Source: a virus
Strand: one strand, 5' to 3'
Length of the DNA: 64,000 bases
IMG/VR virus record: IMGVR_UViG_3300044846_004119
Location: 64,001-128,000 of that record
Positions 1-36,157 of this stretch are shown here, in pieces (positions within the stretch are counted from its first letter, which is position 1; each line of letters opens with the position of its first letter). Position numbers and translations under genes: made by a program. The notes under the pieces are model-generated. The model searched no databases and had not been told where the DNA came from. It saw only the letters and a program-made list of their open reading frames with translations.

Positions 1-2
1 AG

Positions 3-2949: not shown

Positions 2950-2957
2950 TATTTATC
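2950..2957 (+). promoter_or_regulatory. Putative phage promoter motif TATTTAT(C)
   Basis: Intergenic copy of the recurring TATTTATN motif, 21 nt upstream of the helicase ATG. Confidence 0.4.
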
Positions 2958-2978
2958 AAATACAACAATGAAAAAACT

Positions 2979-7760: not shown

Positions 7761-7784
7761 TATAAAATAGAAAATTACAACATT

Positions 7785-7812
7785 AATCACGGCAAACTGT
7801 CGTGATTTTTTA
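7785..7812 (+). terminator. Intrinsic terminator after nrdA
   Basis: AATCACGGCA-AAC-TGTCGTGATT followed by Ts. Confidence 0.7.
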
Positions 7813-7820
7813 TTTTACTC

Positions 7821-7855
7821 TATTTATAAGAAATAATCACGACACTATATTTATT
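7821..7855 (+). promoter_or_regulatory. Two putative late-promoter motifs (TATTTATA 7821-7828, TATTTATT 7848-7855)
   Basis: Located at the start of the structural gene block; same motif recurs before other structural genes. Confidence 0.55.
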
Positions 7856-7858
7856 GAT

Positions 7859-8317: not shown

Positions 8318-8323
8318 TGATAT

Positions 8324-10162: not shown

Positions 10163-10212
10163 TAATTTATTTTCAAAATAAATGAATTATCATTTGAAAA
10201 TAGTATATAAAC

Positions 10213-10220
10213 TATTTATC
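10213..10220 (+). promoter_or_regulatory. Putative late-promoter motif TATTTATC
   Basis: Intergenic, 14 nt upstream of the ATG at 10235. Confidence 0.5.
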
Positions 10221-10234
10221 AAAAAAAGACCAAT

Positions 10235-13200: not shown

Positions 13201-15721
13201 TTCTTCAATTTCTAATACATGGGGTTTTACTAACAGAGTAAAAGTTACTAGTGGTGTTGGTGGGGCGCCTAAATATCATTTAAATCAACCAATTAAACCT
13301 GGTTTTAAAAATATTAGACATAATTTAACAAATAATTTTGATACCGATACTTATAGTGGTCAAAAATTATATTTTGATTCCTTCCATTATCAACCGAGTC
13401 CGACTGGCCCCGCGGCTTTTAGTGGATTTAATTCTAATTTACAAACTTACTATTCTTCATTAGATAATGGTAGTATGTCGTTCACACCTCAAGTTGGTAC
13501 TCCTAGTTTAGAGACTGGTTTTAATTCTGACACAACTTACGGTGTTAATGTTGATGGTAACATTAATTACTTTGCTAGAGAATTTAATTCACAACCAGGT
13601 TTAATTGACCCAAATACAAATAACTACCTCGCTCCCATAAACCCTTATAATGTTCCAAACACTAATTTTCCCAACACTGTAAGTCGTGGATATTACGATA
13701 ATGAAATTATTGAAGGAGGGTCTGGAATGTATTGTCAAACTTTTGTAAGAGCACTTAGCGTAGCGGCAAGTATAGGTGGAACCTACGACTATAAATCATA
13801 TTATTATGCACCAAAATACCCTATTGCTAACATGTCATATAATTTGGGTGGTAGTCGAAAAATAATAATGAGGTCAGATAGATTACCTACATCTACTACA
13901 TTACAAAACAATTTAAATAATAGTTTTGCATTACATAACAATGTTAATTTCTCAGTATATTCAATTAGTGATGATGGTACTTCAGTGCAAGCTCAAGGTG
14001 TTGGTGGCGGCCAATCGGGAAGTATAACGGGTAATACTGCGGACTCATTAAGTGATGGTGAGACGGAACCTCAAATTATTAGTTCAGTTATTGACTCATT
14101 CAACTGTGGGGCGATGATTAATTTAGACTGTTATAAAGAGGTTAATGGAGAGTTAGTTGTTGATTATACAGGGCCTTGTGGGTATACCTTTTGGAACAAG
14201 AAACTGGTGACAAAGGGATGTTATACTTTTATAACTACAATTTTTTTATCATTAGTCTCAGACTTTAAATTATTAACCGAGTGGGTTAGTCGTTTATTAA
14301 TAACATTTGCCGCATGTCGAAACGTGTGGGGACATCTGTTCACAAATAATTGGATTAATGGTACTTTATACGCATTTAATTTTAATAATGATGTCACATT
14401 TACATCTCCATTATCACCAAATCCAAATCAAGCAAGATATTCTTATTGTGATGATGTGGTTATATTACATAATAATACTAACAATTTTTATTATAGAAGT
14501 AGCCCATGGGACCGAATTGAGTTTATTGGACAAAATAGAGCAACACCAAATACTTTTACTTCGGCATTATTTGGGGGGTATGGTGGAAATATGTATAATT
14601 TATTATACCCAACGACCATTATGGATTTAGGTCCAAGAAATGATTATTTACAAGATATTGTAATGTCAGATAAATATGATGGATATGTTGCTAATAAATT
14701 AAAATCAACTACTTTCTCAGATGTTACTGAATTATTAAATTTGTTCGTAATTACTAGGTTGGCTAATTCAAGTTTCTTACAACTATTAATTGGTGGAGGA
14801 AATGTGTTCTCATATTTTAGTAGAGTTAAAAATATGGTTGATGGGGATTACGCTCAGTCGATTTCAATTAATTCAGAACTTGGAGTTGCACCATTTCAAT
14901 CGGCAAATTACCCCGACAGACCTGGACAAGATTCTATTTATATTAATACGCTTTCAGATGATGACCAAGTATTTGGAATATTCTATCAATCAGATACAAG
15001 ACTAAGAGATTTAATTAGCCCAAAAAGGACAATTATTGACGATACTGTTCCGGCAACTAATGTGTGCGCGTTTAGTAATATTGAAGTTTCTTCCCAAGAC
15101 GTTCCATTTTATCAATGGGAAGTTAGGACAAATAAAGTTGGTTCAAACGATAGTATTTTTGGTAGTCAAGTTAATGGGTGGATGACTGACCCGTTATCTA
15201 CAACTAGTTTCTTTACTAAGAAATATCAAAGTTTAGATAGAATAGAATCAGCGTCAAGATATTTTAGAACTAATTCTACCGCAATGACTAAGTACTTTAA
15301 GGGTTATCTATATAGTGTTGAACCAAAGACCGTTACAGGTGTTTGTAGTATTTTTGGTAATGTTTTAACAATTTATTCTCCCATTCCACAACTTTTACAA
15401 GAAGGGTTTGTATTAAGTGCCGCAGGGATTATTCCAAATACTACGATAATAAGTCAATTAACTGTAGCATTACCAAGTACTGTTGCGGGTGGTTCAGGTA
15501 CTTATCTTATTGATACTCCGCAAAATTTTGTTGGAGGGCCATTTACCGCAGTAGGGTTTATATATAGTGCGGATATTATCACTCAAGACCAAAACACCCC
15601 TAAAGGTAGAGTAATAAACACAGGAGCTCCTTTCTATTTCTATTTTGGTTTGAAGAGAGGTGGTACCGCATTTGATAGATTTGTGATTAAATGGGTCGAT
15701 ACTAATGATATAACTGCGTAA
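10235..15721 (+). CDS. Large virion (baseplate/tail) protein with an N-terminal carboxypeptidase-regulatory-like beta-sandwich and an internal hydrophobic segment
   Basis: 1828 aa. GRVSINNGFGIPNAKVSVF...TNDSGDYMIFGVP motif; ~70-aa hydrophobic stretch; structural-block context. Confidence 0.7.
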   Translation: MSNSYRIRTKPGVDSSIKILIDQEFEYLEILSLKILQSQIYTRQCSDYGVIVGRVSINNGFGIPNAKVSVFIPLDSMDENDPVISELYPYKTLSDLNEDGYRYNLLPYKQQHPGHNPTGTFFTREDVLINPTLIEVYDKYYKYNAITNDSGDYMIFGVPVGAQTVVVDLDLSDIGEFSLAPQDLIRMGITTESQVSGTNFKSSTNLRELPQIITFVRNLEVEPLWGQPEICNLGITRTDFDLSAEFNINITPTAIFMGSLVSSIEEQYVKKSCKPTLTSGALCSLVAGPGEILAIRHTIAQDSNGRPILETIDLESGGQVIDENGTWLVDLPMNLDYVITNEFGEQVISDNPKNGIPTKGRYRFKVKWNQSPSVSADPIKRGYFLVPNIKEYGWKKIGNINVDPLTNNTATALNRDAAQRSYAFSLDWADYGLTGTSMGNQMIDEAIRCEDKFYEFQYNKVYTVSQLITQYRNGYGNWRIIAIKDILDSDVKCSSDNNKFPTNDAVYRFDLIYLLFTIMMFVFRPILYVLLLIVHILAFFLMLIGPILAIIAIVVYLVVITICTFINGVIWVINGIPFVSLDYLDCPDVKDIKETVNLLLNLYKKFTNLRLPNLSYPDCEFCQCTDGDAIVIDNADYPDAVANVAQTAQEAGANAVLSPFELSTSYNAASPYNTDNLVYEQLFAGTSLGNANQANNPLTPQTRAPKLIPVSGGVSNQGNDYEFTTSLTQAERLNLFNTKAKFFRNDINNNPGGGVNIINVSFNPNDIGVTHQDNVIVLMVDPSAAETFLPGNLITFQDPANSTDPNMTGFTSINDYGTTSSTGTTVNNKPGSTSNVGNITVQYADYTNGNGPALTKTYTSQQADNDAQYAKFPMDVEYFQVITAQTYSDYFTICNQPGSFGAYHGLINRFINNHMKFNRIYGKSFGSGFWINELNINYPGAFPLIKPSLYFPEFNEQIVVFLVRGVDPYSTRSNCEYDLSVLYGDVVTASSISNTWGFTNRVKVTSGVGGAPKYHLNQPIKPGFKNIRHNLTNNFDTDTYSGQKLYFDSFHYQPSPTGPAAFSGFNSNLQTYYSSLDNGSMSFTPQVGTPSLETGFNSDTTYGVNVDGNINYFAREFNSQPGLIDPNTNNYLAPINPYNVPNTNFPNTVSRGYYDNEIIEGGSGMYCQTFVRALSVAASIGGTYDYKSYYYAPKYPIANMSYNLGGSRKIIMRSDRLPTSTTLQNNLNNSFALHNNVNFSVYSISDDGTSVQAQGVGGGQSGSITGNTADSLSDGETEPQIISSVIDSFNCGAMINLDCYKEVNGELVVDYTGPCGYTFWNKKLVTKGCYTFITTIFLSLVSDFKLLTEWVSRLLITFAACRNVWGHLFTNNWINGTLYAFNFNNDVTFTSPLSPNPNQARYSYCDDVVILHNNTNNFYYRSSPWDRIEFIGQNRATPNTFTSALFGGYGGNMYNLLYPTTIMDLGPRNDYLQDIVMSDKYDGYVANKLKSTTFSDVTELLNLFVITRLANSSFLQLLIGGGNVFSYFSRVKNMVDGDYAQSISINSELGVAPFQSANYPDRPGQDSIYINTLSDDDQVFGIFYQSDTRLRDLISPKRTIIDDTVPATNVCAFSNIEVSSQDVPFYQWEVRTNKVGSNDSIFGSQVNGWMTDPLSTTSFFTKKYQSLDRIESASRYFRTNSTAMTKYFKGYLYSVEPKTVTGVCSIFGNVLTIYSPIPQLLQEGFVLSAAGIIPNTTIISQLTVALPSTVAGGSGTYLIDTPQNFVGGPFTAVGFIYSADIITQDQNTPKGRVINTGAPFYFYFGLKRGGTAFDRFVIKWVDTNDITA

Positions 15722-15722
15722 T

Positions 15723-17519
15723 ATGGGGAATAGAATAGATACTCGAGTAGTTTTAGGGTCATTAAGGTACAAGTCGGCACCTGACACAAACCTAATGTTT
15801 AATGTACCTTTAGTTCAAACTAATAAGGAGAATATTGAATTTGATAGGAATATTAATATTGACTTACAACAAGTTTTTGATGATGAAAGACAAAAATCCG
15901 ATACATTTAGACCTGCGTGCAAGTTCTCATTATTATTTAACAATTCTTATAGTGGGTCAACTAATTACGTACCATTAGAAAATAATTTATATTATGTTAA
16001 CGCTGTTGCAGCTGCTAAACTACAATGTGGGTATAATCCACAAACTGTTCTTTGGTCAGGGTTTCCACAATATAATGAGTTTGACTTTGTTCGCACAGAT
16101 TATAATGTCCCAGGATATACTCAACCACCCAATAATCATATTACTTTTATACCTAAAAGTGCTTCAAGTTATAATTGGAATTTTTTTGTTAGTTATGCTT
16201 ATGATAATGATTTTACAAAACCATTAGAGGCTATTGACCAAAAAAGTGGACAATTATTACAATGGATTTCTGGTGGAGGAATACCATTTATAATTAATAA
16301 CACAACATTTAATGGACAAAATTTAGTATCATTTAGATGTCCGGTAAAACATGGTTTATCTATTGGTGAGCACGTAAAACTTAACTTCAGTTACATTGGA
16401 ATTGACACATTTCAAGTATATTCATTAGGAGACCAAAAATCGGGGAGTGAAGAATACATATTCAATATATATAACGTTGGGTTTACTGGCGCTGTTTTTG
16501 TTAATAATAAAAAAGGTTTTTTTAAAAGAATTATTGATATTGAAAATCCTAATGATACTACCTCACAATATTATGTTAGAAGACATAAATTATTAACTAA
16601 CTCGCAAGACGCGGTATTAGTTAACGCAGGATTTGACCAAAATATTTTTGGTAATAAAAAGAAATTTGAAAGTAGTGGATTTACGCCAAATCGAGTTGCT
16701 AGGGTTTCAACTAAAGAAGGCTCGCAATCATATACACTATCTTTTAATAAAGACATAAATATTAATCCTATTAGAGATAATCAAAAACGACCTATAAGTG
16801 AGTTATTTTTCACTGTCATTTGGAAAGGTTATTTTGGATTAATGTTTGGTACTAAAAAAAATCCAAATGACTATTTAGGTCTTAAACAAGGTTATGAATT
16901 TAATTTACCGGTTGACCCCGCAAACAATCAACCTAGTTCTTGGTGGGAGAACCTAAACAGTTTATCCGACACAACATTTCCTGTTGGTTTTTATAACACA
17001 CCACTTGGTGCTGGTTTAGGGCCTAATTCAGGGCCAATACCATTTACCTATATTGAATCGTTAAAACAAAATGATATTTTAGATGGGGATTTGTGTGAGT
17101 GGAATGAATCGGAACAAAAAGAAAGAGTTATCTCAAAATTATATCATAAGTACAGATTTAACCCATTTGTATTAAGTGTGACAGAACCACAACAATCACC
17201 CTCAAACATGTTTGGGTATTATTATCAACCTCATTACCCAATAAAGATTAGGGATTATTCTGATTATATTGAAACGGGTAGTAAACAATTAACTGAGGGT
17301 ATCCCTGACTATGCGTTTTATTCGCAAAAAACCGATTCATTTATTTGGAGAGATATATACCAATATGGTTTTATTAATAATGGTATTGGGGTTAATTACC
17401 CATTTATTAATGGTACCCATTACCCTTATAATTATAATATTTTTAGAATAATTCCGGAAGGAAGTAATTATGGTATAGAAGGATTAACAACTGACCCTAT
17501 TATCGATGGATGTGAGTAA
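15723..17519 (+). CDS. Putative virion structural protein
   Basis: 598 aa, N/Y/F/G-rich composition, packed within the baseplate operon. Confidence 0.65.
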   Translation: MGNRIDTRVVLGSLRYKSAPDTNLMFNVPLVQTNKENIEFDRNINIDLQQVFDDERQKSDTFRPACKFSLLFNNSYSGSTNYVPLENNLYYVNAVAAAKLQCGYNPQTVLWSGFPQYNEFDFVRTDYNVPGYTQPPNNHITFIPKSASSYNWNFFVSYAYDNDFTKPLEAIDQKSGQLLQWISGGGIPFIINNTTFNGQNLVSFRCPVKHGLSIGEHVKLNFSYIGIDTFQVYSLGDQKSGSEEYIFNIYNVGFTGAVFVNNKKGFFKRIIDIENPNDTTSQYYVRRHKLLTNSQDAVLVNAGFDQNIFGNKKKFESSGFTPNRVARVSTKEGSQSYTLSFNKDININPIRDNQKRPISELFFTVIWKGYFGLMFGTKKNPNDYLGLKQGYEFNLPVDPANNQPSSWWENLNSLSDTTFPVGFYNTPLGAGLGPNSGPIPFTYIESLKQNDILDGDLCEWNESEQKERVISKLYHKYRFNPFVLSVTEPQQSPSNMFGYYYQPHYPIKIRDYSDYIETGSKQLTEGIPDYAFYSQKTDSFIWRDIYQYGFINNGIGVNYPFINGTHYPYNYNIFRIIPEGSNYGIEGLTTDPIIDGCE

Positions 17520-19586: not shown

Positions 19587-20495
19587 ATGGCAACAGGAAC
19601 GTACGGTACAATTAGACCAGCGGATGTCTCTCCCGAAGATGTGGAAATCATCTTAAATTACACACCATCAAGGGATGAAACAGATAATTTTATCTTAACT
19701 AAGTTAAATGCGACATCAATCTTAAGACCATACTTTAATAACAATGATACTGGTGGTAACCCTAATATTGAAATATTGGGTGGTTTATATAATTTAAGGT
19801 TACCTTCAGACCAATTTAATAAAATTGGTATCTATACCTTAATGGTTAGACCGGCCCAAATAAGAACAAGAATACTTGATTGTGGTGTTCTATCGGCATT
19901 ACCAAATGTTAAAGGGTTAGTTATTGATTTAAATGACGTGCCAACTCAGTTTAGAAATAAATTTGTTAATCAAGGATTGGTTGGTTTTAGAATTGAATAT
20001 TTAAATTCTGACGGAACTAAAGTACCTAATTTTTTTAGATTAATAACTTCATCATTTTTTTGTGAACCAGTTGTTCAAAACTTAACTAATACTTCTCAAA
20101 AAGCTATTAGATATAGGTATACTGATAATAATACAAATTTAATTTTTTGTACTGTTTCACCATCATCATCACCTACTAATAAGCCAAATGCAACACCGTA
20201 TATTGGGCAACCTGACCAAGATATCATTATTACAAATACTTTCTTTAATCCAATAACATTGGATATTGAAATTGCTGAACACGATTTCTCAACATTGGCA
20301 ATTGCATTGTTTGGTAATCAAACTAAGTCTATGGATGATGGTATCTACACATTATACGATACTCAAAATAACATATACAGACAATACAATTTATATGAAA
20401 TTAGAGACCAATTTAATGAATTACTTTATGAGGTTAGACAAGATAGGGGAAATAATATTGACTTCAGTAAAAACTTTACAAATATAACGCAATAA
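19587..20495 (+). CDS. Putative virion structural protein
   Basis: 302 aa; TAATG stop/start coupling to the next gene. Confidence 0.65.
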   Translation: MATGTYGTIRPADVSPEDVEIILNYTPSRDETDNFILTKLNATSILRPYFNNNDTGGNPNIEILGGLYNLRLPSDQFNKIGIYTLMVRPAQIRTRILDCGVLSALPNVKGLVIDLNDVPTQFRNKFVNQGLVGFRIEYLNSDGTKVPNFFRLITSSFFCEPVVQNLTNTSQKAIRYRYTDNNTNLIFCTVSPSSSPTNKPNATPYIGQPDQDIIITNTFFNPITLDIEIAEHDFSTLAIALFGNQTKSMDDGIYTLYDTQNNIYRQYNLYEIRDQFNELLYEVRQDRGNNIDFSKNFTNITQ

Positions 20496-23400: not shown

Positions 23401-23515
23401 TTATTTAACAACTACCGATACTATAGTTATTTATAATTCAATTTGCTCCACTTCAGCCTTTGGTGATAACTTCAAACTAAATGTCGGAATAAACTTTAAT
23501 ATTTTATGTAATTAA
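20495..23515 (+). CDS. Baseplate/tail protein with a P2 gpI / gp7-like wedge segment
   Basis: LLKNLAQTLGW and YLFKSKGTRKSIEVLMRLVG resemble baseplate wedge motifs. Confidence 0.6.
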   Translation: MAVTKYTCPPQSASGAGTFSDNLVGFQLVTGGGLTQGNFEFVSSINEKTNRTFNTGNFSDPISLDSMGVSGVVQSKSIFENNFKVYPNFDMSQITNFTLYGSMVKRISVSVETIISKFPAALESTFMGTNYVTGATATNILFNSVYDETVFDLDVSKLRNPFDIDFSVNSTRNLELKEISVSPLRDMTIQYAKYSLYVNGVGYDVKSLTPTTNTSSGILQISVSGNPFSGQSIVYYSFVIRPNDYEVTKIFNEDLDEVENFLLNRSVTPIYTATFQVPRESEDGTYYTSNQPITWPLYGEWNIDIITKSFENYLIQLNEVSEYFDIYTTNLVSRFLITGSFKEFDTVTQKMEKVLQIYGRSFDETKKFIDALAFMTSVNYNVGNDIPSQLLKNLAQTLGWGINISPITEDDFLGSVFGQKNKDNSQFTGTSQKQTPDELNYQYYRNLVLNSAYLFKSKGTRKSIEVLMRLVGAPEALVEFNEYVYVADQKINLEQFDTQFYNISGGTYIQELPTYEQGNTFNIMGVTYTGFTTQTTIQDVNINRGEYPMDFYGYPQAPIDTENYFFQIGSGWFEQTPKHRAPEQVDLNNSVFTGSNPNYQTTLIPYSYGQEYLNRFRDFPFMTLGYNLSAVPDNNKSWTDNEVGIRSNLDGGINARYFVDDERLVLNVKNVDLFLNPAQGIVYDVWYMSRQYNYPIPNQGLNYVAPTYCNPHPNIEYPQRGGVDWTEINPQPKRKTFFEFAQTFWQNTINVRNRQYATDGKTSGYPTLSSIFWKYLESQKTINIPNDNFTYQTMIDYVNGMGDYWIRLVEQMIPATTIWNTGVKYENSIFHRQKFVWRRQECCKFIPVPCKPCSLTSNIYRYDCNIQSVECGVYPWYGSSTINSFNAVLGQALNNYLTANGYTLNDCLLNTLTTNWFVEIKINDSTVIQYPFFDGIGYTNISLSSPQPNDWDSALLIALNDLTIYGYDYYLTTTDTIVIYNSICSTSAFGDNFKLNVGINFNILCN

Positions 23516-26500
23516 TGTCTTGTACTTTATTATATACCTCAACTATAACTGGTGATTGTTCAAATACTAATGTTGGAGGATTCACTATAGATATTAATGG
23601 TAGTGCTCCTGATTATTCAATTCAGTGGATTAACCCATCTTCTTTAGGAACTATAGCGTTAGGTGCTGGTGTTATACAATATGAGGTTACATCATTATCT
23701 GCGGGGACTTACACATTTAATATTATTGATTCATGTATACCAACATTAACGATTGTCCCCGTAAATGTATATATATCAAGTGGAACGTGTGTAAGTATTG
23801 ATTCTCATACTAATGCTACTTGTGGCCAAAATAACGGTAGTCTTACCGCATCAACCCAAAATCTTTATGGTATAAGTCAATTCTACCTTTACGATACAAT
23901 TAATGGTTATATTACTTCGGCGTCATCAGTGACAAATACTTTTGCATTTGATAATATGTTAAGTCCTGGAATTTATTATGTTATAGGTGATGATGGTGGT
24001 GGATGTTCCGGTAAGTCAGAAACATGTATTGTTCAAAGTGCGGAAACATTTGACTACGGATTTTATGTTGTTAATGATGCGGGGTGTGCGGTAAATTCGG
24101 GTAAAATATTTATTACAGGATTAACAGGCACGCCACCATACACTTATTTATGGTCAAACGGAGGAACAAACTCATCAATTAGCGGTTTAAGTGCCTCGAC
24201 TTACGGTGTTATTGTTACTGATGGTAATGGATGTACTATTTCTAAATCGGTAACGGTATTACAAGTGCCATTAGTTGGTTTAGGAGCGTTTACCTCAATT
24301 AGTCCAACTTGTTTTGCGTCTAACGGAGAAATTACGGTTACGGTAACAGGTGGAACCGCGCCATATTATTTTTCAGGTTCAAATGGGACTGTTTATATTA
24401 CATTTGACCAAACTTACACTTTTACAAATTTAGCTTCAGGTGTTTTTACAGTACAAGTGACGGATGCTGGTTTATGTAATTTTGTTGCAAGTACAACATT
24501 ATTACCTCCAGGAGGATTTAGTATTGTTGGTATTGGTGTTAATAATTCAAACTGTAACAATAACGGGGGGTCTTTAAACCCAATTCAATTATTTGGTGGT
24601 AGTGGTAATTACACCTATGACTTACAATATCCTGATGGACATCATGATATTGTAAGTACAACAAATCAAAATTGGCAATTTACGGGACTTTCAGGAGGTA
24701 CTTATAATTTAACAATTAATGATGGTGTCTGTACCTTTACCAGTGCTTATACTATCAATAATACTGTTCAATTTAATTTAACAACAACAAGTACAGGAAC
24801 AACTTGTGGTTTTACTAATGGAGCTATTAATTTAGAAATTTCAGGTAGTACAGGGCCTTATACTTACTCAATAAATGGGTTAAGTTTGGTTTCGCCTTTA
24901 AGTGCTTATACATTTAGTAATCTGGCCTCAGGAACATATACGGCTAGTGTTACAGACTTTAGTGGGTGTCAACAAACTAATTCTGTATTAGTTGCCCCAT
25001 CCGCAAATCCTAATTTTATATTAAATGCGACAAATACAGTAAATGGTTCTGATGGTACTATCACCGCATACATAACTAATGGTTTACCACCATTTACTTT
25101 AAATTGGAGTAGTAACGTAAATGGACAAACAGGGGATACGATTAATAGTTTATCAGCTGGCACGTATTCACTTACAGTTATAGATTTTAATGGGTGTTCT
25201 ACAATATCAAGTGTTATTATTACGGGTACAAATAGTGTGGCATCCTATCAGACATATACAATATGTGATACTGATTTTATCAATTCACCAAATGCAATTA
25301 AAACGGGGCCTAAACAAATGTTAAATGAAGGTTTTTATGATTTAACATTTAATGATATAAATTGTGTGTTAAATGAAGCAATTTTTGAGGCGATTGTGAG
25401 TGTTAGTGGTGATGTTTTAACTCAACAATTTTATGCTGGTACAACATTAAACGAATATCCTGCAGATAATCAATTTTATGACACAATTACGGGGTTATTA
25501 TTACAATTTGATGGTATTGCAAGTGTGGATATTAATCCTCTAAGAAACACTATTCAAATTTTAACTGATTGTGACTCGTTAGTTTCTTTATCGGATGCTC
25601 AAGTTATTATTAACATGAAAATATATTATGATATCTCGTGCGTTAGTTGTCCTAGTCCAACACCAACACCGACACAAACACCAACGCCAACTAACACTCC
25701 TACACCAACAGTCACACTTGGGTTAAGTCCAACACCAACAAATACCTCAACTCCAGCAAATACGCCAACACCTACACCAACAAAAACACCAACTCCAACA
25801 CCTTTACCGATAATACCAATATGTTCTGTGATAATTAATGGTAGTACTAACGTATCCGCCTATTTTCCATCATCAAATACTAACGTATCTTTAGGTTTTT
25901 CAGTAAGTGCACTTGATATTGCACATACAACAACTAAACTATGGTTGGATACTGGATTGATAATTAAAGAATATAACATAACATTAAACCCTTGGTCAAA
26001 AACGTTCAACAGAAACATCGCATACCCTTCAGGTGTTTCTTTAGGGGCTGGTTTAGGTGCCATTAGCAGCTCTCAGTTAATCTCAACAAACACTTCAGTA
26101 TCTCCTAATCAAATAATTACTTTAGATATTACCACAAGTACCGCAGTTTCAACTGTGATTGGAACACTACTGCCTGGTAGGGAGGTTTCGGGTGATATTT
26201 TATTAACAACAACAAATAAAATATTAGTTACTAATTCAACTACCTCAGGTCCATATCTTACATATCTAACCCAATATAGTTATCCGTCAGGTACTTTTGA
26301 AGTTGAGGTCGATATTACGTCAACCACACCCCAACCGTATGGTATATTTATCGATAGTGGTAATATATATGTTTGTAACAATGGTGGTCAAATATATAAG
26401 GTTAATGTTAACTTTCCATATACACAAACATTATTTAATAACTCAGGGTTATATGTTGAAGGAGCATCTCAAGTACCAAGTTGTTGTAATACTAACCTAA

Positions 26501-26802
26501 ACTTACCTATAACATACTATACTTGGTTTACTAATCTTGATACCTACACATCATCTGATATTACTCCCTGTATAGCCACTGGTTGTGGGGCAAATTTATA
26601 CACAGCAACATCGACAATAGCTCCTGGAATTGTAATATATCAGGATAATGCTTTAACAATACCATTTGTTGGTACTAATTATGGTGTTTCAGGTGGTGGA
26701 TGGGGTAGATTGTTTTTATCAGATGATTGCCCAATAATTGGATTGAGAAATATTGCACAAGTAAATGGTTCAGGACAAGTTCTAAGTAATTATACATGTT
26801 AA
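23515..26802 (+). CDS. Virion surface / tail-fibre-like protein with SprB-like repeats and a Pro-Thr linker
   Basis: Repeated [12 protein letters not shown]...VTDGNGC, GGTAPY and [10 protein letters not shown] units; [15 protein letters not shown] tract at ~25650-25805. Confidence 0.7.
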
Positions 26803-26833: not shown

Positions 26834-27010
26834 TTAATCAATTGGGTCTTTTTTACCTAAACCACCATAAAGTCTCATAAGTTTTAGGGATTCATGATAG
26901 TTTTTTTCTAATCTGTCTAGTTCTTTTTCAGGGACACCTTTTTCACAGGCAACCTCATACGCATCTTTAGATTCAGAAACCAATTTTGATATTGTTTTTA
27001 GTAGTTTCAT
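26834..27010 (-). CDS. Small 58-aa protein missing from the ORF track, possibly head-packaged
   Basis: Manual translation MKLLKTISKLVSESKDAYEVACEKGVPEKELDRLEKNYHESLKLMRLYGGLGKKDPID. Fills the intergenic gap; TATTTATA motif 4 nt upstream on the minus strand. Confidence 0.7.
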   Translation of the reverse strand: MKLLKTISKLVSESKDAYEVACEKGVPEKELDRLEKNYHESLKLMRLYGGLGKKDPID

Positions 27011-27061: not shown

Positions 27062-27069
27062 TATTTATT
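27062..27069 (+). promoter_or_regulatory. Putative late-promoter motif TATTTATT
   Basis: 12 nt upstream of the glycosyltransferase-like gene ATG. Confidence 0.5.
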
Positions 27070-27081: not shown

Positions 27082-28059
27082 ATGGATAAAAATTTAAGAT
27101 TTGTATGTGCCCAACCTGATGTACCATATTTTTATTGGCAAGTTAGGGTGTACGTTGAAAATTTTATAGAAAAAGGTATTTTACCAAACCAAATACATGT
27201 TATTTTTGGTATAGTAACACCAAATACCGAACCAACTTCAGATTCGTTAAAATTAAAAGAATTGGGAATTAATATCCATCATTATTTAGACGACAGAGAA
27301 CAAAAACATTATATTCCAAACATTAAGCCATTTTTAATTCATAAATGGTTAAAGGAATTCCCTCAACACGGAGAATGTTTTTTCTTACATGATGCTGATA
27401 TAATTTTTAGAGAATTACCTGATTTTAAAACATTAATGGAGGATGATGTTTTATATCTTTCAGATACTGTTGGTTATATTGGGTTTAATTACATTATGGA
27501 TTGTTGTAAAAGATATGAATCTCATCACCCACAATCTAAACAAGGGCAATTACTACAAGAAATGGTTGATGTTATTGGTGTTACGACCGAATGTGTTGAA
27601 TGTAATGAAAATAATTCAGGCGGTGGTCAATATTTGATTAAAAAAACAGATTGGATGATTTGGGAAAAAATCTATATGGATTGTGCGCCACTATATGACC
27701 AAATGATGGATTACCAAAAACGTTTCCCAATAAACCAAGGTGAAATACAATTTTGGACTGCAGAAATGTGGTCTTTATTATGGAACTTATGGTATTTTGG
27801 AAAAGAAACTAAAGTAGTTAAAGATTTAGATTTTTCATGGGCAACCGACTCAATTTCTATTTACGAACAAAGACCAATACTTCATATGGCAGGAGTAACT
27901 TCAGATATGAAAACAACTAAATTTTATAAAGGTGATTTTATTAATGTTAATCCATTAATTAAGTTAACGGAAAATTTTGAATATTTTGATTATGTTGAAG
28001 AACATAGTTCTACAAAAAAATATATAGATGTTATGAAATCTATAGTAAAAAAACAATAA
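27082..28059 (+). CDS. Putative GT-A glycosyltransferase resembling peptidyl-serine alpha-galactosyltransferase / Hyp O-arabinosyltransferase (GT96/GT95)
   Basis: Ordered motifs YFYWQ, YIPNIKP..IHKWL, LHDADIIFR (DxD), GGG, WTAEMW, PILH parallel plant SERGT1 motifs as recalled (YFDWQ, YPAINKP...WL, LDADMIIR, WISEMY). Confidence 0.65.
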   Translation: MDKNLRFVCAQPDVPYFYWQVRVYVENFIEKGILPNQIHVIFGIVTPNTEPTSDSLKLKELGINIHHYLDDREQKHYIPNIKPFLIHKWLKEFPQHGECFFLHDADIIFRELPDFKTLMEDDVLYLSDTVGYIGFNYIMDCCKRYESHHPQSKQGQLLQEMVDVIGVTTECVECNENNSGGGQYLIKKTDWMIWEKIYMDCAPLYDQMMDYQKRFPINQGEIQFWTAEMWSLLWNLWYFGKETKVVKDLDFSWATDSISIYEQRPILHMAGVTSDMKTTKFYKGDFINVNPLIKLTENFEYFDYVEEHSSTKKYIDVMKSIVKKQ

Positions 28060-28085: not shown

Positions 28086-29474
28086 ATGACTAACACGACA
28101 TCTTTACTTCAACAAAAAAACGAATGTGATGTAATTACAATATTTCCAATGACCGTTGAGTGTTTAGTTAACAATCCGTCATCACAAAATGCGACTGATG
28201 GAGGTTTATCTATTTCTATAACAGGAGGAACACCACCATACATAGTTGCTTGGAGTAATGGTAATATATCTCCGGCAATTAATAATTTAGGTGCTGGTAG
28301 TTATACGGCAATAGTTACTGACTATTCTTGGTCAGGGAGTGGTCCTGATTATACGGCAACTACAACATGTGTGTTAACCGCACCTATAACACCTACAACT
28401 ACAACCACAACAACGGTTGCTCCTGTATTACTCTATGATATTTGTTTAACAGTGTATAAACAACCAAGTAATTATCAAATACACTTTAACCCTAATGGTA
28501 TATATAATGGTATCTATAGTAGTGGTTATCAATCATGGATATCAGATGACTCAGTATACCAAATTGTTTGGGGTACACTATACCAGTCATGGACTGTAAT
28601 TCCGCCCCCAACAAATCCTGGTTATTATTTACTATCACCCTCACCATATCCACCTTTAACGGGATGGTATATAAATGGTGCGTTAGGAACTGTTGTATCA
28701 AATCAAGGTCTTTGTGTACCGTTACCAAGTAACCCGTCATTTACATATTCACTTACTCAACCAACTTGTATATGTGATGGTAATATAATTATAACGGCTT
28801 CTAATGGAACACCACCATATCAGTACTCAGTTGATAATGGAGTGACATTCACTAGTAATTCAGGGCTCTTCACAGGAAAATGTCCTGGAACTTATAGTTT
28901 ACAAATTAAGGATTCGTTAAATAATTTAAGTACTGTTTCTACGGCTACCTTAAATAATTTTATTGGAATAACAACATATACTCTTAGTTTGTCACCAGTA
29001 TCTATTACAACGGTAAACAATAACACAACTGTAACAAAACAATATACTTGTACCGTAAATGTTTCACCACCAATCCCTGTTGGAACAACAATTACGTTTG
29101 ATGCACAACACATAAATGTGCTTGGTAGAGGGCCTGCCTCAACTGACGCAACTATTGTGACTAATAGTGTTTTAACTAAAAATTCAACAGTAATACCAAT
29201 AACTTCAAGCCCGTCATCAAGTAATACTACCACACAATTAGGTGCCGGTTGTCAATCGGCGCCAATACATAATACAACCCAAACTGATAACTGGATTTCG
29301 GTATCAATGACAAATGGTGATACCATGGTTATTAATACCACAACAACTATGACTAAAATACAACCAGTACCTCATTGTTTCTTTGCGGATTTCGGTGACA
29401 CATTTTTTGCAGTAAATGGGGTTATTAATGGATGTAGTTGTTGTACGTTAATTATGCCAAATAAAGCGGTATAA
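28086..29474 (+). CDS. Virion surface protein with SprB-like repeats and a poly-Thr linker
   Basis: GGTPPYIVAWSNG and NGTPPYQYSVDNG units; TPTTTTTTT tract; Cys-rich C-terminus (CSCC). Confidence 0.65.
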   Translation: MTNTTSLLQQKNECDVITIFPMTVECLVNNPSSQNATDGGLSISITGGTPPYIVAWSNGNISPAINNLGAGSYTAIVTDYSWSGSGPDYTATTTCVLTAPITPTTTTTTTVAPVLLYDICLTVYKQPSNYQIHFNPNGIYNGIYSSGYQSWISDDSVYQIVWGTLYQSWTVIPPPTNPGYYLLSPSPYPPLTGWYINGALGTVVSNQGLCVPLPSNPSFTYSLTQPTCICDGNIIITASNGTPPYQYSVDNGVTFTSNSGLFTGKCPGTYSLQIKDSLNNLSTVSTATLNNFIGITTYTLSLSPVSITTVNNNTTVTKQYTCTVNVSPPIPVGTTITFDAQHINVLGRGPASTDATIVTNSVLTKNSTVIPITSSPSSSNTTTQLGAGCQSAPIHNTTQTDNWISVSMTNGDTMVINTTTTMTKIQPVPHCFFADFGDTFFAVNGVINGCSCCTLIMPNKAV

Positions 29475-29503: not shown

Positions 29504-31936
29504 ATGACTTATATATTAAAAAATACATCGGGATTAATTAATACTAGATTAACAGACACTGGAAGACAAAAATTATCTCAAGGTAATTTTAACATCGAGT
29601 ATTTTCAAATTGGTGACGGAGAAGTTTCATATAACTCTTTACCAAGTTCATATAATCAAGCTAATACAAACATATTTGAACCTAATTTTAATTCACAAAA
29701 TTCAGCACCAACACAATCAAATAAACAATATGTAAAATATCCTTATTATGTTGATGGTGTAACAGGTAATACTTATGGTATTCCTTATTCAGAACCTGTG
29801 GTTTCTCCTGTATATAACCGAGCGGCAATGAGAGGATTTTTTACGGGAGACCTTAGTGCGACAACAATTAATTGGAGTGCAATTACAAATAGTTCTCATG
29901 TTATTAATTCTAATTATGTTGTTGATATGTCAGTATTAACTGGCGGTACCACGATTATGTTAATTTATTCAGGTTGTAACACCAATATTGTTAGAATGCC
30001 TGCTATAGGTGATTTATTAACAATCTATTATGATGGTAATGGTGACCACAATTGTGCCTGTAGTACTTACCCAACGCCAAGCCCAACACCTTCACCAACC
30101 CCAACTCCAACCCCATCATATGACCCTTGTATCTTACCACCAACCCCAACTCCGTCACCAACATTTTGTCCAATAACACCGACACCAAATTGTGACCCTG
30201 TTGTGGAACCAGAATGTCTTATGGATATGAGTAGTTGTTACCCAATGATGACATATAAAATTGTCGATATTTGTTTAGGTGTTTACACATTAGATAGGCC
30301 AACACCTAATTTTTCAGGAAGTTCAAATGTTTGTTATGCGAGAACTATCGTATATCCGCCAAATATGACATCACTTTATGATACACTAACACCATGTAAA
30401 CATTGGAATGAGGATGTTATTAATTTTGAGTCTGTTTGTTATACAGATGAGTTTGATGTTAAAATTTGGAATATGAATATTCCATGGTCGGAAAATCCTG
30501 CGGGGTTAATTCCGACAATAAATGAAGGATTTGCGGATTTTGGTTCAGCGACATATATCGGGTCAAAAGAATATTTGGGTTATATGTCGAATAGTGGGCA
30601 GACTGACAGCAGTTCAGTATACTACTACAACTCTTTCGATGAAAAAGTTACTGTACAACCAAAAGACCAAAAATCTATTGCCATTATTCACTATACAAAT
30701 CAAAGTATTGATTTCTTTTATGGTGAAAAATTTGCATTAGAACCTTATGACCCTACGGCGCCTGCTAATACTATTGGGCAAGCAAGAAACTTTAGACTAC
30801 ATATTCCATGGCTTATGTGGCATAAAAATCCTGAATGTTGTTTAGGTGAAACTTTTTGGGTTGACCCTCCAGGGTATGACGGATTAAATTTATTTCAAGT
30901 ACAATACTTGAAATCTACTAAGAATGCGGATATGAATAACCCTGGTATGAGATACTACCAATTATGGGATACTAATACAAATGATGACGGGTTCCCAAGT
31001 AGAGTTGGTAAAGTTTTCCCTGACCAAAAAATTATAGTGATTGATGATGAAGAGATTATTGCTGCTATGTCTTATAAATCAAATCGTAATTGGACTCTAC
31101 CTTCACCAAAACTTACTTTAGTTGCACCAAATACATGTGGTACTGATAATACTTCATATATTGGTGTGTTAACAGGTGATACTGAGTATATGTATGTGAC
31201 TTATAGAATTAGTAATACGATTAATTTTACTAATTCATTACATTGTAACTATTATACTAGAATACAAGGTCCAAATTTAACTTGTATACCAAGTGCGTCG
31301 CAAAACGTGTCAATTAGGTTTGGTCCGGAGTTTGGTTGTTTAAATCAACCAGATTATACACCAACAACTACAACAACTACAACTACAACAACATTATGTC
31401 CATCTGTTTGTTATACGCCACAAGGATTTTACGGTGATAAATTTGAAATTATATGTCAAAAAGTTATTGGTGATATTAGACCTGATTCGTCCGAGTGGAA
31501 AATAATCGATGTAACATCACAATTAAGTGCAACAACCGTTGGAGGGTATATTACTCAAAACGGTATAACAGGTAATACATTTACTATTACTCAAGATGAC
31601 TATGATAATGCACCTTATTACGATTTAAATACATATATACCTCTAACCCCTGTTGGAAGCACTACACCATCTTTAAATTTTGGGGACGAATATTATTTCT
31701 ATGGTTCGTTAGAAACGGATATTCAAGCTACAATATATGAGATGAGGTATAAAATTAATTTAGGTGTTGCTGAATTTCAAGCAACTTCAAACCCAACATG
31801 GACTCAAGGGACTGACTCATATATAACTGATATTGGTCTTTACGATTCTGATAAGAATCTTATGATTATATCAAAGATGCAATCACCTGTTTTAAGACAA
31901 GGGATTCAACAGTTCCTGGTTAAATTTGATTTCTAA
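29504..31936 (+). CDS. Tail-collar / baseplate-associated protein with Pro-Thr linkers
   Basis: N-terminal LTDTGRQKLSQGNFNIEYFQIGD and C-terminal ITDIGLYDSDKNLMIISK resemble tail-collar (gpH N-terminal-like) motifs; PTPSPTP and T9 tracts. Confidence 0.6.
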   Translation: MTYILKNTSGLINTRLTDTGRQKLSQGNFNIEYFQIGDGEVSYNSLPSSYNQANTNIFEPNFNSQNSAPTQSNKQYVKYPYYVDGVTGNTYGIPYSEPVVSPVYNRAAMRGFFTGDLSATTINWSAITNSSHVINSNYVVDMSVLTGGTTIMLIYSGCNTNIVRMPAIGDLLTIYYDGNGDHNCACSTYPTPSPTPSPTPTPTPSYDPCILPPTPTPSPTFCPITPTPNCDPVVEPECLMDMSSCYPMMTYKIVDICLGVYTLDRPTPNFSGSSNVCYARTIVYPPNMTSLYDTLTPCKHWNEDVINFESVCYTDEFDVKIWNMNIPWSENPAGLIPTINEGFADFGSATYIGSKEYLGYMSNSGQTDSSSVYYYNSFDEKVTVQPKDQKSIAIIHYTNQSIDFFYGEKFALEPYDPTAPANTIGQARNFRLHIPWLMWHKNPECCLGETFWVDPPGYDGLNLFQVQYLKSTKNADMNNPGMRYYQLWDTNTNDDGFPSRVGKVFPDQKIIVIDDEEIIAAMSYKSNRNWTLPSPKLTLVAPNTCGTDNTSYIGVLTGDTEYMYVTYRISNTINFTNSLHCNYYTRIQGPNLTCIPSASQNVSIRFGPEFGCLNQPDYTPTTTTTTTTTTLCPSVCYTPQGFYGDKFEIICQKVIGDIRPDSSEWKIIDVTSQLSATTVGGYITQNGITGNTFTITQDDYDNAPYYDLNTYIPLTPVGSTTPSLNFGDEYYFYGSLETDIQATIYEMRYKINLGVAEFQATSNPTWTQGTDSYITDIGLYDSDKNLMIISKMQSPVLRQGIQQFLVKFDF

Positions 31937-31982: not shown

Positions 31983-32585
31983 ATGATTAGAAATAAATTA
32001 AAAGAAAGTCCAAAAGTTTTAGGTCTTGATGTGTCAACTCGAACAATCGGTGTTGCATTATTTGATATACAAAGTAGAGAATTATTAGAATTAACTCACG
32101 TATCACCAGTTCCAAAACCAAAAGAAGAGTCTAAAATTAAGGAATTATTACTTAAGAGTGATATTTTTAGAAATAAGTTAATTGAATATAAAGACTTAGG
32201 TATTGTTAAGGTTATTATTGAAGAACCATTATTAAATTCAAATAATGTTTATACTATTAGTATTTTATTAAGATATAATACCTTAATTACTAAAGAAATT
32301 TATGATGTTTTAGGTATTGTACCTGAATTTATATCCACCTATAATTCACGTAAGTTTGCTTACCCTGAATTAGTTAGAGAAAACAACAAAAATAAGTTTG
32401 TTTTATTTGGGGGATTCCCAAAAGACTGTGATAAAAAACAAATCATATGGGAACAAGTTGCTAAAAGAGAACCACAAATACAGTGGTTGTATACTCGAAA
32501 CAATACATTAAAGAAAGAAAACTTTGACCAAACAGACGCCTATACTTGTGTATTAGGTTATATGAGACAAGAAAAACTTTGGTAA
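31983..32585 (+). CDS. RuvC-like Holliday junction resolvase
   Basis: VLGLDVSTRTIGVALFD, IIEEP and DQTDA acidic catalytic pattern. Confidence 0.8.
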   Translation: MIRNKLKESPKVLGLDVSTRTIGVALFDIQSRELLELTHVSPVPKPKEESKIKELLLKSDIFRNKLIEYKDLGIVKVIIEEPLLNSNNVYTISILLRYNTLITKEIYDVLGIVPEFISTYNSRKFAYPELVRENNKNKFVLFGGFPKDCDKKQIIWEQVAKREPQIQWLYTRNNTLKKENFDQTDAYTCVLGYMRQEKLW

Positions 32586-32611
32586 TATCGTATAAATAAC
32601 CGATAATATAG

Positions 32612-32641
32612 AATATCGTCTTTTTAGACGATATTTTTTTT
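32612..32641. terminator. Hairpin terminator between convergent genes
   Basis: AATATCGTCT-TTTT-AGACGATATT perfect 10-bp stem followed by a T-run. Confidence 0.8.
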
Positions 32642-32662: not shown

Positions 32663-35600
32663 TCAATTTTGAGCAGTAGTTGAGGTTATTATAATTGGAA
32701 CACCACAGTTTGCGGTTGTTACTGTAAAAGAATAGTTTATTTCAAAAACTTGGTCAATAGATAATACAGAGTTGTTGTATGAACCAATACTTAATTGAGC
32801 ATTCGAAATAAATCCGGTACAAAATGATGAAGGTACCATTGCCTGTAAATAAACCGATACCACAGCACCTGTTTGAACTGAAAAAGTATTTGAATAGACA
32901 CCAGCAGCTAAGCTAGATTGAAACGTATATACTATAACACCATTAACTTTTATATTACCCGTTGTCCAAGAACAATAGGTTTTTGTGTGAGTGTAAGACA
33001 TGGTACAAGGTTGTGGTGTTACAGTTGTTGTTGTTGTTGTTGTTGGTGTTGCCGCCGCAGAACAAGCATTACAACTAGGGTATGTTGAGAAACCAGTGAA
33101 GTAATTACCAGACCAAGTAATTACATTTGTGTTTGGGGAAAATTGTCCCGGTGAACATAAGGAAGAGCCAATAAATTTCCAACACACCCCTGTAGTAGGG
33201 TTACGTAAAACATTCCCAACAATAGTTGTTGGTGTTGCCGGTACAGTTTGAACTAAGACCTGCAGGGTACTAGATGAATTGTTATTATTGTTAGTACAAT
33301 CTGTAAACACATAATAAGTTAAACATGGAGTTGGAGTTACGGTTGATGATGGTGTTGGAGGTAATCCTGATGTTACGGTAGGAGTTGGCGTTTGTGTTGG
33401 TGTTTGGGTTGGCGTATTTGTTGGTGTACTTGTTGGCGTAATAACACAGTTTAAACAATCACCTAAATTAGAAAAACCAAAAGGACCTGCAAGTAAATCC
33501 ATTTGGTTAATACCTATGATATCGTTGTTTACCCCAATATAACTCACACATTTTGACACACCATCAACAAGTGATTCAAAAACCATATATATTTCTATAT
33601 CAAGACCTGGAGTTGGGTTCTCAAGGACACTTGTTGTATAATACATACTACCATTAAAACAGTCTTGGAATTGTTTACTTGATGGACATTTAATTAAGTC
33701 ATTAACAGTATTAAATGTTACGTTTCCTAAAAAGTCACACGGTCTGTCAATTGCGGGTGTAGGTGTTGGTGTGGTTGTTACTGTAGGTGTTGGTGTTGGT
33801 GTAATAGAACTAATCGTTGCATCAACACTAACATTTGAACATACATTTATTGGTGTCTGAGTAGGTGTCTGAGTAGGTGTTGGGGTCTGAGTAGGTGTTT
33901 GCGTTGGAGTAGGAGTAAAGTCACAATCAAATAATGCCGTAAAGTCAACATCACACGGTAATGTAGGTGTTGGCGTTGGTGTAGGACAAATACCTGCAAG
34001 TAAATTGTCGTCACATAAATCAGGACAAATACTATAACAAGGTGATTTACCCGATAATAAACAAATACCACCTAAACTGGTCGATAAACACCATTGAGTG
34101 TTTGTCGTGTCATAATAAATAAATAATGAATTTAATGTACCAACCCAATAAAAATTAATACCATAAGCACCAACTCTTACGTAGTTATCGTCCCATAAGA
34201 CATTGCCCGTATCATATAAACAATAGTTTATTACCGTACAAAAACCTACAGGTATTGATGTTTCAGTTGGTGTTGGCGTTGGTGTTTCAGTTGGTGTAGG
34301 AGTATTTGTTGGTGTTTGGGTTGGAGTTTCGGTTGGTGTAGGAGTATTTGTTGGTGTTTGGGTCAGCCCATTTGTTGGCGTATTTGTTGGTGTTTCAGTT
34401 GGTGTTGGTGTTTGGGTTGGTGTATTTGTTGGTGTTTCAGTTGGAGTATTTGTTGGAGTTTCAGTTGGTGTTTGGGTTGGTGTTTCAGTTGGTGTTGGTG
34501 TTGGTGTTTCATTTGGGGTTGGAGTATTTGTTGGTGTAGGTGTATTTGTTGGTGTTTCAGTTGGCGTATTTGTTGGTGTTTCAGTATTTGTTGGTGTATT
34601 TGTTGGTGTTTCAGTATTTGTTGGAGTATTTGTTGGAGTATTTGTTGGTGTTTCAGTTGGAGTATTTGTTGGAGTATTTGTTGGGGTATTTGTTGGTGTT
34701 TCAGTTGGCGTTGGTGTAACTGTTGGTGTTGGAGTATTTGTTGGAGTATTTGTTGGTGTAGGTGTATTTGTTGGTGTTTCAGTTGGCGTATTTGTTGGTG
34801 TTACAGTATTTGTTGGGGTAACTGTTGATGTAGGTGTATTTGTTGGGGTATTTGTTGGGGTATTAGTCGGAGTTTGAGTCGGCGTTTGAGTCGGAGTATT
34901 TGTTGGAGTTACAGTATTTGTTGGAGTATTAGTTACAGTATTTGTTGGAGTATTTGTTGGAGTATTTGTTGGAGTATTTGTTGGTGTTTCAGTTGGAGTA
35001 TTTGTTGGAGTTACAGTGTTTGTTGGAGTATTAGTTGGCGTAGATGTTGGAGTTTCAGTTGGGCTTGGTGTAGGAGTATTTGTTGGAGTTATTGTATTTG
35101 TTGGTGTTACAGTATTAGTTGGAGTATTAGTTGGAGTATTAGTCGGTGTATTAGTTGGTGTATTTGTTGGAGTTACAGTATTAGTTGGCGTTATTGTATT
35201 TGTTGGTGTTGAAGTATTTGTTGGAGTATTAGTTGGAGTTGTTGTTGGTGTTGGTGGAGGATTTGTTGAGGTAAGAGTTGGGGTGGGTGTTGGAGTTTCA
35301 GTTGGACTTGGTGTAGGAGTATTTGTTGGAGTTACAGTATTTGTTGGTGTTGGTGTATTTGATGGTGTTGAAGTATTTGTTGGTGTTATTGTATTTGTTG
35401 GTGTTGATGTATTTGTTGGCGTTATTGTATTTGTTGGTGTTACAGTATTAGTTGGAGTATTAGTCGGCGTATTAGTCGGCGTATTAGTTGGAGTATTAGT
35501 TGGAGTTGGAGTTGGGGTTGGGGTTTGGGTTGGAGTGTTAGTTGGAGTTGGAGTTGGGGTAGGTGTTGGGCTAAGTGGTGGTGTACAATACCAACTTGGA

Positions 35601-36157
35601 GCATTACACATGTTTAGAGTAACAGTTACAGTTGAATAAGTTGCGTTAGTTTTAACGTCATTAATATATAAATATGGAATTGGGTTTAGTATATTAACAC
35701 ACATGTTGAATGTACCAGGCACCTCAAATGGGTATGATAAAGTTTCTCCAAGCTGACAATTATACATGTCAACAAATACTACTCCGTCAACTGCAGGGTC
35801 AGTATTACCTACGGCATCATTTAAGTCCTTAGAATCAATATAAATGTCAACACACGTACAAGTTGGTAATGGTATAATATTGGGACTTTGACATTTTGCC
35901 GTATGGTCGACCATACAAGCGGCACAACCACCTCCAGGTGTATACTCAAAATAGGTGTTAACACTATTATAGTGAGTCTCAACATAACCAGCAAGTTTGG
36001 CCTCCCAACATACATCATTTGTGTCATAATAAATTTTACCTGCAATAAACTCTGAGTTTGTAACTCCATCAATTGTTGGCGTACATGGCCTAATAATTAC
36101 TGCATTGTTAAAACAACATCTTAAAAATACTGTATTACATTCTGGTATTTGCGGCAT
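32663..36157 (-). CDS. Mucin-like Pro/Thr-repeat, Cys-rich virion surface protein
   Basis: 1164 aa with ~440 aa of (T-N/E/Q/P/V-T-P)n and three shorter PT tracts separating Cys-rich globular segments. Confidence 0.8.
34255..35575 (-). repeat. Degenerate 12-nt / 6-nt coding tandem repeat ([14 protein letters not shown])
   Basis: Plus strand shows GTTGG(A/T/C/G)GTATTT units with wobble-position variation. Confidence 0.95.

Follow-up and report, generated by a model that had tools for sequence, protein, structure and literature searches.

What would a phage glycosylate when its glycosyltransferase gene lies between genes for proteins with long runs of threonine (Thr)? The question is raised by a stretch of 64,000 nucleotides, here called the window, from the IMG/VR virus record IMGVR_UViG_3300044846_004119. 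A gene on the plus strand (27082..28059) encodes a soluble GT-A glycosyltransferase of 325 amino acids that is distantly HPAT-like, as judged from the translated open reading frame (ORF), a family alignment and a predicted model. This protein, called GT below, matches PHROG 4417 (E 6e-67), a group without an assigned function. The comparisons described here suggest that GT is quite probably a phage-encoded O-glycosyltransferase for the Thr tracts of virion proteins.

The record comprises 125,891 bp and 129 ORFs, with a CheckV completeness of 42%. Its complete relatives measure 257-318 kb, so the phage of the window is a jumbo phage; a megablast search with 20 kb of the window gave no match among phage records. 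Tracts of Pro/Thr or poly-Thr occur in five of the 129 ORFs. One of these encodes the tail sheath; the other four, for proteins B, C, D and F, flank GT.

All four flanking proteins are candidate substrates. Protein B (23515..26802, plus strand) is fibre-like, with 1095 amino acids, SprB repeats (Pfam SprB, E 1.7e-19) and (PT)n linkers at nucleotides 25648-25719 and 25744-25812. Protein C (28086..29474, plus strand; 462 amino acids) has a sub-threshold SprB match, at 26 bits for a cut-off of 28, and a poly-Thr linker (T7) at 28374-28427. Protein D (29504..31936, plus strand; 810 amino acids) is conserved and has no assigned function. It has a (PT/PS)n tract at 30065-30121 and a T10 run at 31346-31405; it is the best-supported candidate, since its poly-Thr insert tracks GT. 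Protein F (32663..36157, minus strand; 1164 amino acids) belongs to PHROG 15511, of unknown function. It is mucin-like, being 43% Thr and Pro, with (TNTP)n-type tracts spread over 33002-35587, a T7 run among them. The sheath gene lies outside the window, at 13927-17262 of the record (PHROG 23, E 1.4e-53). At 1111 amino acids its product is more than twice the length of the PHROG 23 profile (496 positions), and a Thr-rich insert at residues 282-320 (TTTTT, TTTTTTT and TTTTTT) accounts for part of the extra length.

Joint gain and loss of GT and poly-Thr tracts

Evidence for a link between the enzyme and the tracts can be found in the window's own clade, represented by 80 loci from IMG/VR whose GT homologues have 56-100% identity. 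Across them, GT, C, D and E stay together as a block, even in inverted regions, and C comes after GT in nearly all of them. Thr-rich orthologues are the rule for D (63/65) and F (58/60) and are common for C (47/83) and B (41/76). They are rare for gene A (3/67), absent for E (0/64) and gene H (0/48), and found in 8 of 210 among all other ORFs of at least 150 amino acids.

Using the conserved protein D as a query recruited relatives that lack GT. The poly-Thr insert of D is present in 46 of 50 relatives with GT and in none of 26 without it (Fisher test 1.8e-16, kinship ignored; four further loci stand outside this two-by-two table). With its one to four T5-T10 blocks, the insert always lies between the conserved motifs FGxEFGCL and GFYxxKFE, and it is missing from the genomes without GT. 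When the GT family profile was run over five of the latter records, one of them 257 kb long and 100% complete, no GT was found anywhere; records with GT have exactly one copy in four cases out of four. A tree of D computed without the Thr-rich material requires no fewer than 5-7 changes of the GT state.

The same association recurs in unrelated phages. There are 77 phage records with GT homologues that are about 30-38% identical, nearly all of them from phages of Bacillota, together with one Chryseobacterium phage and one Arcanobacterium phage. In phages of Enterococcus, Lactobacillus, Staphylococcus, Clostridium and Chryseobacterium, the homologues adjoin capsid or tail-tube proteins with poly-Thr. 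Six unrelated phages were inspected, and in all six the GT gene lies among structural genes beside poly-Thr tails or tracts. In phiFL1A, poly-Thr forms the C-terminus of both the major tail protein and a protein of capsid type. The major capsid and major tail proteins of iLp84 both carry poly-Thr, and this phage also has a small protein that is 41% Ser and Thr. Poly-Thr is found in the portal protein, a small head protein and a tail-tube-sized protein of phiCTP1, and in two proteins upstream of the GT gene of Chryseobacterium phage MA9V-3, where the tracts are internal. In VPE25, the major tail protein has T10 as its C-terminal end, and a head protein has an internal T6 not far from its own. 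In SA2, poly-Thr occurs in a protein annotated as an assembly protease and in the major tail protein, which an additional ORF overlaps.

That overlapping ORF is a separate observation. It lies at 19658-19930 of Staphylococcus phage VB-SauS-SA2, covers the 3' end of the major tail gene, and encodes 90 amino acids with a Thr/Ser-rich run of 47 residues. A frameshift might join it to the tail-tube protein, which would then also exist in a long form with a heavy tag.

Loci from bacterial genomes (n = 80) show which residue forms the runs. Homopolymer runs of at least six residues are made of Thr 99 times and of all other residues 6 times, while Thr makes up 6.1% of residues; the Thr run usually stops 1-4 residues before the C-terminus. 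Of 44 loci with a stand-alone enzyme (up to 400 amino acids), 32 have a poly-Thr ORF no more than 5 kb away, and several of the others lie on contigs of 1.4-3.5 kb.

A lineage of Enterococcus prophages provides a close comparison. In 69 loci with GT, the capsid protein carries a C-terminal poly-Thr tag. In seven loci without GT (up to 5.9 kb of downstream sequence), the capsid protein is 84-87% identical and ends in ...KLAPTPSK, with no poly-Thr. Four apparent exceptions are contigs that end within 155 nucleotides after the capsid gene, and nearly all close relatives of this capsid protein come with GT. Poly-Thr is also absent from the homologous capsid proteins of five more distant phages without GT (PSA, ANDSL2_ph1, BhaS-171, 2638A and Javan139). 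Finally, in an unbiased scan of IMG/VR for (ACN)8, in-frame T8 runs occurred at 59 loci, and GT at four of these; in each of the four, GT stands directly beside the poly-Thr ORF, and their lineages are 34-38% identical to the GT of the window. The co-occurrence with Thr-rich genes that the first-pass annotation had proposed to look for is strong in the clade of the window as well as in unrelated phages.

These observations suggest how the system may work. GT would be a soluble cytoplasmic, metal-dependent enzyme, probably retaining, that acts late in infection, before or during virion assembly. It would move a sugar from a host nucleotide-sugar to Thr hydroxyls in disordered poly-Thr and Pro/Thr tracts. 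The substrates in the phage of the window would be the tail sheath and four fibre-like proteins (B, C, D and F). In small phages with Gram-positive hosts, poly-Thr tags at the C-termini of major capsid and tail-tube proteins would take that role. Because GT is the sole glycosyltransferase recognised in these loci, a single sugar per site is probable. Virions would thereby gain a surface brush of glycans, a coat that might serve adhesion, stiffening, protease resistance or mimicry.

A broader proposal can be held with moderate confidence. Poly-Thr may be a portable "glycosylate me" tag for one dedicated family of phage enzymes, so that mucin-type O-glycosylation of capsids, tail tubes, sheaths and fibres would be widespread in phages of Enterococcus, Staphylococcus, lactobacilli, clostridia and Bacteroidota and in aquatic jumbo phages, and would be tied in evolution to the glycosyltransferases of plant cell-wall proteins.

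The enzyme and its relatives

The first-pass annotation had described GT as a cytoplasmic-looking protein with a DxD motif, and this description holds. GT has no transmembrane-like segment (its Kyte-Doolittle mean over 19 residues peaks at 1.03). An alignment of 60 homologues with 28-92% identity was used to assess conservation. The motifs of the protein are PYFYWQ (residues 15-20), HYIPNIKPFLIHKWL, LHDADIIFR (with D104-x-D106), NSGGGQY, FWTAEMW and RPILHMAG, and all those listed in the first-pass annotation are found in the ORF, on invariant or nearly invariant columns of the family. Such columns are W19, Q20, Y77, D104, D106, G180, G181, Q183, W225, M229, W230, H268, G271 and K283.

Two of the motifs may have catalytic roles. 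The DxD motif, D104-A-D106 (27391..27399, plus strand; alignment and model), is the presumed site for the metal and the nucleotide-sugar. D106 is invariant, 90% or more of the 60 homologues have D104, and the motif follows strand 99-102 of the predicted model, in keeping with the place of a GT-A DxD motif after the fourth strand. The motif H268-M-A-G271 (27883..27894, plus strand) resembles the HxxG of GT8 enzymes, and its histidine is a candidate third metal ligand; both H268 and G271 are invariant. As a candidate counterpart of the distal GT8-type motif HxxGxxKPW, H268-x-x-G271 and K283 are invariant, with a different spacing.

Sequence searches of GT against Pfam, NCBIfam and PDB found no true family match. 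A Pfam match to SwrA (19 bits) and a match to TAL-effector repeats from the PDB sequence search were judged spurious. The CAZy GT8 model PF01501 does not match GT at E<=1 or any of the 60 homologues at E<=0.1. The Pfam model DUF7164, a further lead, is unconfirmed, with no match in the window's own genome or in five other genomes. The family itself is large, with 828 clusters (50% identity) at E<=1e-3.

The fold of GT can be recognised from its predicted structure. The AlphaFold2 model, built from the 60-sequence alignment, has a predicted local distance difference test (pLDDT) score of 97.5 and a predicted template modelling (pTM) score of 0.94. GT is a single Rossmann-like alpha/beta/alpha domain that can be superposed on solved GT-A enzymes. 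The top matches of a Foldseek search against the PDB are GT-A enzymes only (UGGT, WbbM, XXYLT1, glycogenin, GTA/GTB, LARGE1 and LgtC; E about 1e-6). The structural-match scores, whose differences are given in Z units, are 15.1 for glycogenin, 14.1 for Skp1 alpha-galactosyltransferase, 13.9 for both LgtC and WbbM, 13.8 for UGGT, 13.2 for LARGE1, 12.8 for GlyE and 11.3 for A64R of virus PBCV-1. Glycogenin, the top match, is protein-directed; within about one Z unit of it stand Skp1 alpha-galactosyltransferase and UGGT, which act on proteins, together with LgtC and WbbM, which act on lipooligosaccharide (LOS) or O-antigen. A comparison with GT-A structures had been proposed in the first-pass annotation as a check; the best structural matches are indeed GT-A enzymes, and no DNA glycosyltransferase was seen among them. 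Most of these matches are retaining enzymes with a DxD motif and a distal histidine, and D104-x-D106 and H268-x-x-G271 would fit that arrangement.

Glycogenin, Skp1 alpha-galactosyltransferase and GlyE are protein-directed GT-A enzymes of the GT8 type. GlyE belongs to the pathway of the pneumococcal serine-rich-repeat adhesin. GT differs from this group in having no sequence match to the Pfam GT8 family, and its identity in the structural alignments is 8-14%. A64R (PDB 2p6w) serves capsid glycosylation in the chlorovirus PBCV-1, a virus of eukaryotes that has N-linked atypical glycans, many glycosyltransferases and no poly-Thr tag.

The first-pass annotation had also called the enzyme plant-type. 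This label is justified in the sense of a distant superfamily relationship to HPAT (GT95); GT is not a member of that family. At its gathering threshold, the HPAT model PF23452 matches neither GT, nor any other protein of its genome, nor the 60 homologues. A bridging protein from Acidimicrobiales passes PF23452 (26.5 bits, with a cut-off of 23.9) and aligns with the GT family profile. In hhalign comparisons, this profile is related to a set of 24 relatives of the bridging protein, nearly all annotated with PF23452, at a probability of 92.4% (E 5e-7, 253 columns), and to a three-sequence set at 81.5%. The motifs PYxxWQ, Y..N.., DxDxxFR, WxS/AxM, IxH and xYK are colinear in GT and HPAT, so that the motifs which the first-pass annotation had cited for SERGT1 (GT96) are in register with HPAT-family proteins. 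In particular, the DxD motif of GT is aligned with DCD/DPD of HPAT-family proteins, and the H268/G271 motif with their IIHYCQ motif.

Plant HPAT enzymes act on peptides rich in Pro, Ser and Thr. The HPAT proteins of plants and algae (PF23452) are type II membrane proteins of the Golgi, whereas GT is soluble and lacks a hydrophobic segment. Their acceptor is hydroxyproline and their donor UDP-L-Araf, while the acceptor of the phage enzyme would be Thr.

Fused members provide further hints about acceptors. Many bacterial PF23452 proteins, about 380 amino acids long, are fused to PqqD (PF05402), the peptide-recognition element in pathways for ribosomally synthesized and post-translationally modified peptides (RiPPs); these fusions suggest an unstudied class of peptide glycosyltransferases. 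In Chitinophaga niastensis, a fused GT-family member of 582 amino acids, with an additional Glyco_transf_7C-like domain, is encoded between radical-SAM and LanC-like genes, with an S41 peptidase gene nearby (stretch 6556-14101). The locus resembles a peptide-modification cluster of the RiPP type and may make a glycosylated peptide. Taken together, the PqqD fusions and the radical-SAM/LanC-like setting point to peptide acceptors in this superfamily.

Other members of the GT family are fused to GT60-type GlcNAc-transferase, protein O-fucosyltransferase, GT2 or F5/8-type-C domains. Giant proteins of 1000-1377 amino acids, on contigs of metagenome-assembled genomes from Acidimicrobiales, Saprospiraceae and Bacteroidota, combine protein O-fucosyltransferase, GT60-type GlcNAc-transferase, F5/8-type-C and GT domains (positions 9929-13021, 147-4010 and 2-4135 of their own stretches). 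They form the sister group of the window's GT on the tree, with 97% local support.

Possible acceptors other than virion threonine

Several observations weigh against Thr tracts of virion proteins as the acceptor. The acceptor is not readable from the fold, since the LOS and O-antigen enzymes LgtC and WbbM score like the protein-directed ones. Four relatives have GT and no poly-Thr insert in D. Linkers of the (PT)n type remain in relatives without GT, and hence the Pro/Thr linkers are independent of the enzyme. Independent contrasts on the D tree all point the same way (3.6, with 0 opposite) and are few (5-7 pairs; sign test p 0.125); tests of independent pairs on the GT and D trees, with 3-7 pairs, are underpowered. 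Fused cellular forms have a poly-Thr ORF nearby in 1 of 36 loci, which indicates that acceptor choice varies within the GT family. In the unbiased scan, 55 of the 59 poly-Thr loci have no GT within the short stretch inspected. The four neighbours of GT had been called structural genes with Pro/Thr linkers in the first-pass annotation; tracts are present in B, C, D and F, but the only proven virion-type protein in the record is the sheath, and SprB similarity suggests such a role for B and C.

One alternative is that GT modifies a glycan of the host envelope (lipopolysaccharide or O-antigen, teichoic acid or capsule), for instance against superinfection or re-adsorption of progeny, and that the poly-Thr tracts are unrelated flexible linkers. 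The equal scores of LgtC and WbbM make such a target compatible with the fold. It is nevertheless quite unlikely: the gene belongs to late structural operons, where it either separates capsid from connector genes or comes immediately behind the gene for the tail tube, and it does not occupy lysogeny or moron positions; the soluble enzyme lacks a membrane partner of the GtrA or GtrB kind; and the loss of poly-Thr tags in genomes without GT would be left unexplained. Glycosylation of hydroxymethylated pyrimidines in DNA, as a means to evade restriction, is very unlikely. Phage glycosyltransferases that hypermodify DNA are well known (10.1101/2023.12.21.572611), and the complete relatives have a gene of the thymidylate-synthase family (PF00303). 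However, this gene passes the curated cut-off of the thymidylate synthase equivalog model NF002496 (331 bits, compared with 325) and lies 67-100 kb from GT. Hydroxymethylase, TET/JBP and ThyX genes (PF00303, PF12851 and PF02511) gave no match in the 42%-complete record, the TET/JBP search (PF12851) having been run without a positive control. Moreover, members of the family are common in chromosomal prophages and among small phages (genomes of about 36-40 kb), located among structural genes in every case, and the fold searches returned no DNA glycosyltransferase.

Alternatively, GT may act on another protein of the phage or host or on a small molecule, and its link with poly-Thr would reflect shared ancestry of a module or a role other than that of substrate, such as a docking site or a chaperone-like function of the enzyme. 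The fact that acceptor specificity cannot be read from sequence speaks for this reading, as do the fused members without poly-Thr and the low power of the independent-contrast test. Yet the link recurs with non-homologous partners (capsid, tail tube, portal, sheath and fibres), in varied gene positions, and in phages of Bacillota, Bacteroidota and Pseudomonadota, which makes shared ancestry of the module unlikely. The predominance of Thr in the runs (99, compared with 6 for other residues) also argues against it, and an acceptor of this kind is on the whole unlikely. O-glycosylation of Thr in virion proteins would account for the joint gain and loss of enzyme and tracts.

Known virion glycosylation and other features of the locus

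Virion glycosylation in Che8 and related mycobacteriophages is reported by Freeman et al. (2023, Cell Host Microbe), as summarised in PMC11256854. There, glycosyltransferases encoded by the phage decorate its capsid proteins, which gives the particle a glycan shield; glycosylation of virions by phage enzymes is documented only for some mycobacteriophages, and it alters recognition by antibodies (PMC11256854). The glycosyltransferase genes of these phages lie near the 3' end of the genome (PMC11256854), whereas the window has a single such gene among structural genes. The poly-Thr tag and the spread over Bacillota, Bacteroidota and jumbo phages are likewise features of the window's family that are absent from the searchable literature. 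No description of the GT family or of poly-Thr tags in phages was found in the searchable literature, whose coverage leaves out most subscription journals. Phage virion glycosylation as such is known, and this enzyme family with its poly-Thr tags would be the new part, a reading well supported by comparative evidence.

If the proposal is true, glycosylated virions would be common in phages of Enterococcus, Staphylococcus, lactobacilli, lactococci and clostridia and in abundant freshwater jumbo phages. This would matter for phage therapy (immunogenicity and pharmacokinetics), for the stability of phages and for how they adhere to mucus or polysaccharide. PHROG 4417 and the puzzling poly-Thr tails would both gain a function, and the pair of one enzyme and one tag would offer a simple means of O-glycosylating chosen sites in the bacterial cytoplasm.

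Two complete relatives with GT encode an RmlB-like dTDP-glucose 4,6-dehydratase about 40 kb from GT (148491-149198 and 121854-122561), and a third complete relative does not. The dehydratase may be a source of a 6-deoxy sugar donor.

Within the block, GT, C, D and E are separated by 26-46 nucleotides. Gene E (31983..32585, plus strand), the last of the block, encodes a RuvC-like resolvase (PHROG 159, E 2e-4) and is probably not part of the glycosylation system. Between the convergent genes E and F lies a bidirectional terminator-like hairpin (32610..32637), with a stem of 12 pairs followed by a T run on both strands.

The gap of 279 nucleotides between B and GT is mostly filled by an ORF of 58 amino acids (MKLLKTISKLVSESKDAYEV...; 26834-27010) on the minus strand. 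GT therefore stands apart from B and is probably transcribed from a promoter of its own. In relatives, the interval between B and GT is hypervariable, with 0-3 ORFs of 75-1724 amino acids that fall into no family. No second glycosyltransferase was found among these ORFs, only an HAD-like domain (HAD_SAK_2, in one of them). Such variability is a pattern typical of a host-range or fibre cassette, and the interval may be one.

The motif TATTTAT, noticed in the first-pass annotation, is present on the plus strand at 27062..27068, 14 nucleotides 5' of the GT start codon, and is common to the upstream regions of GT, C and D. As a motif enriched across the window it was rejected (51 found, 57 expected). 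It is enriched near gene starts: six copies lie within 35 nucleotides upstream of plus-strand starts, with 0.72 expected. One of these six genes encodes a DnaB-like helicase and the leaders are 82% A+T, which leaves the motif as a weak sign of co-regulation. The window also encodes a sigma factor of RNA polymerase (46285-47085, plus strand; PHROG 351, E 1.4e-52), which may be linked to the ATATTTAT-like motif upstream of several genes.
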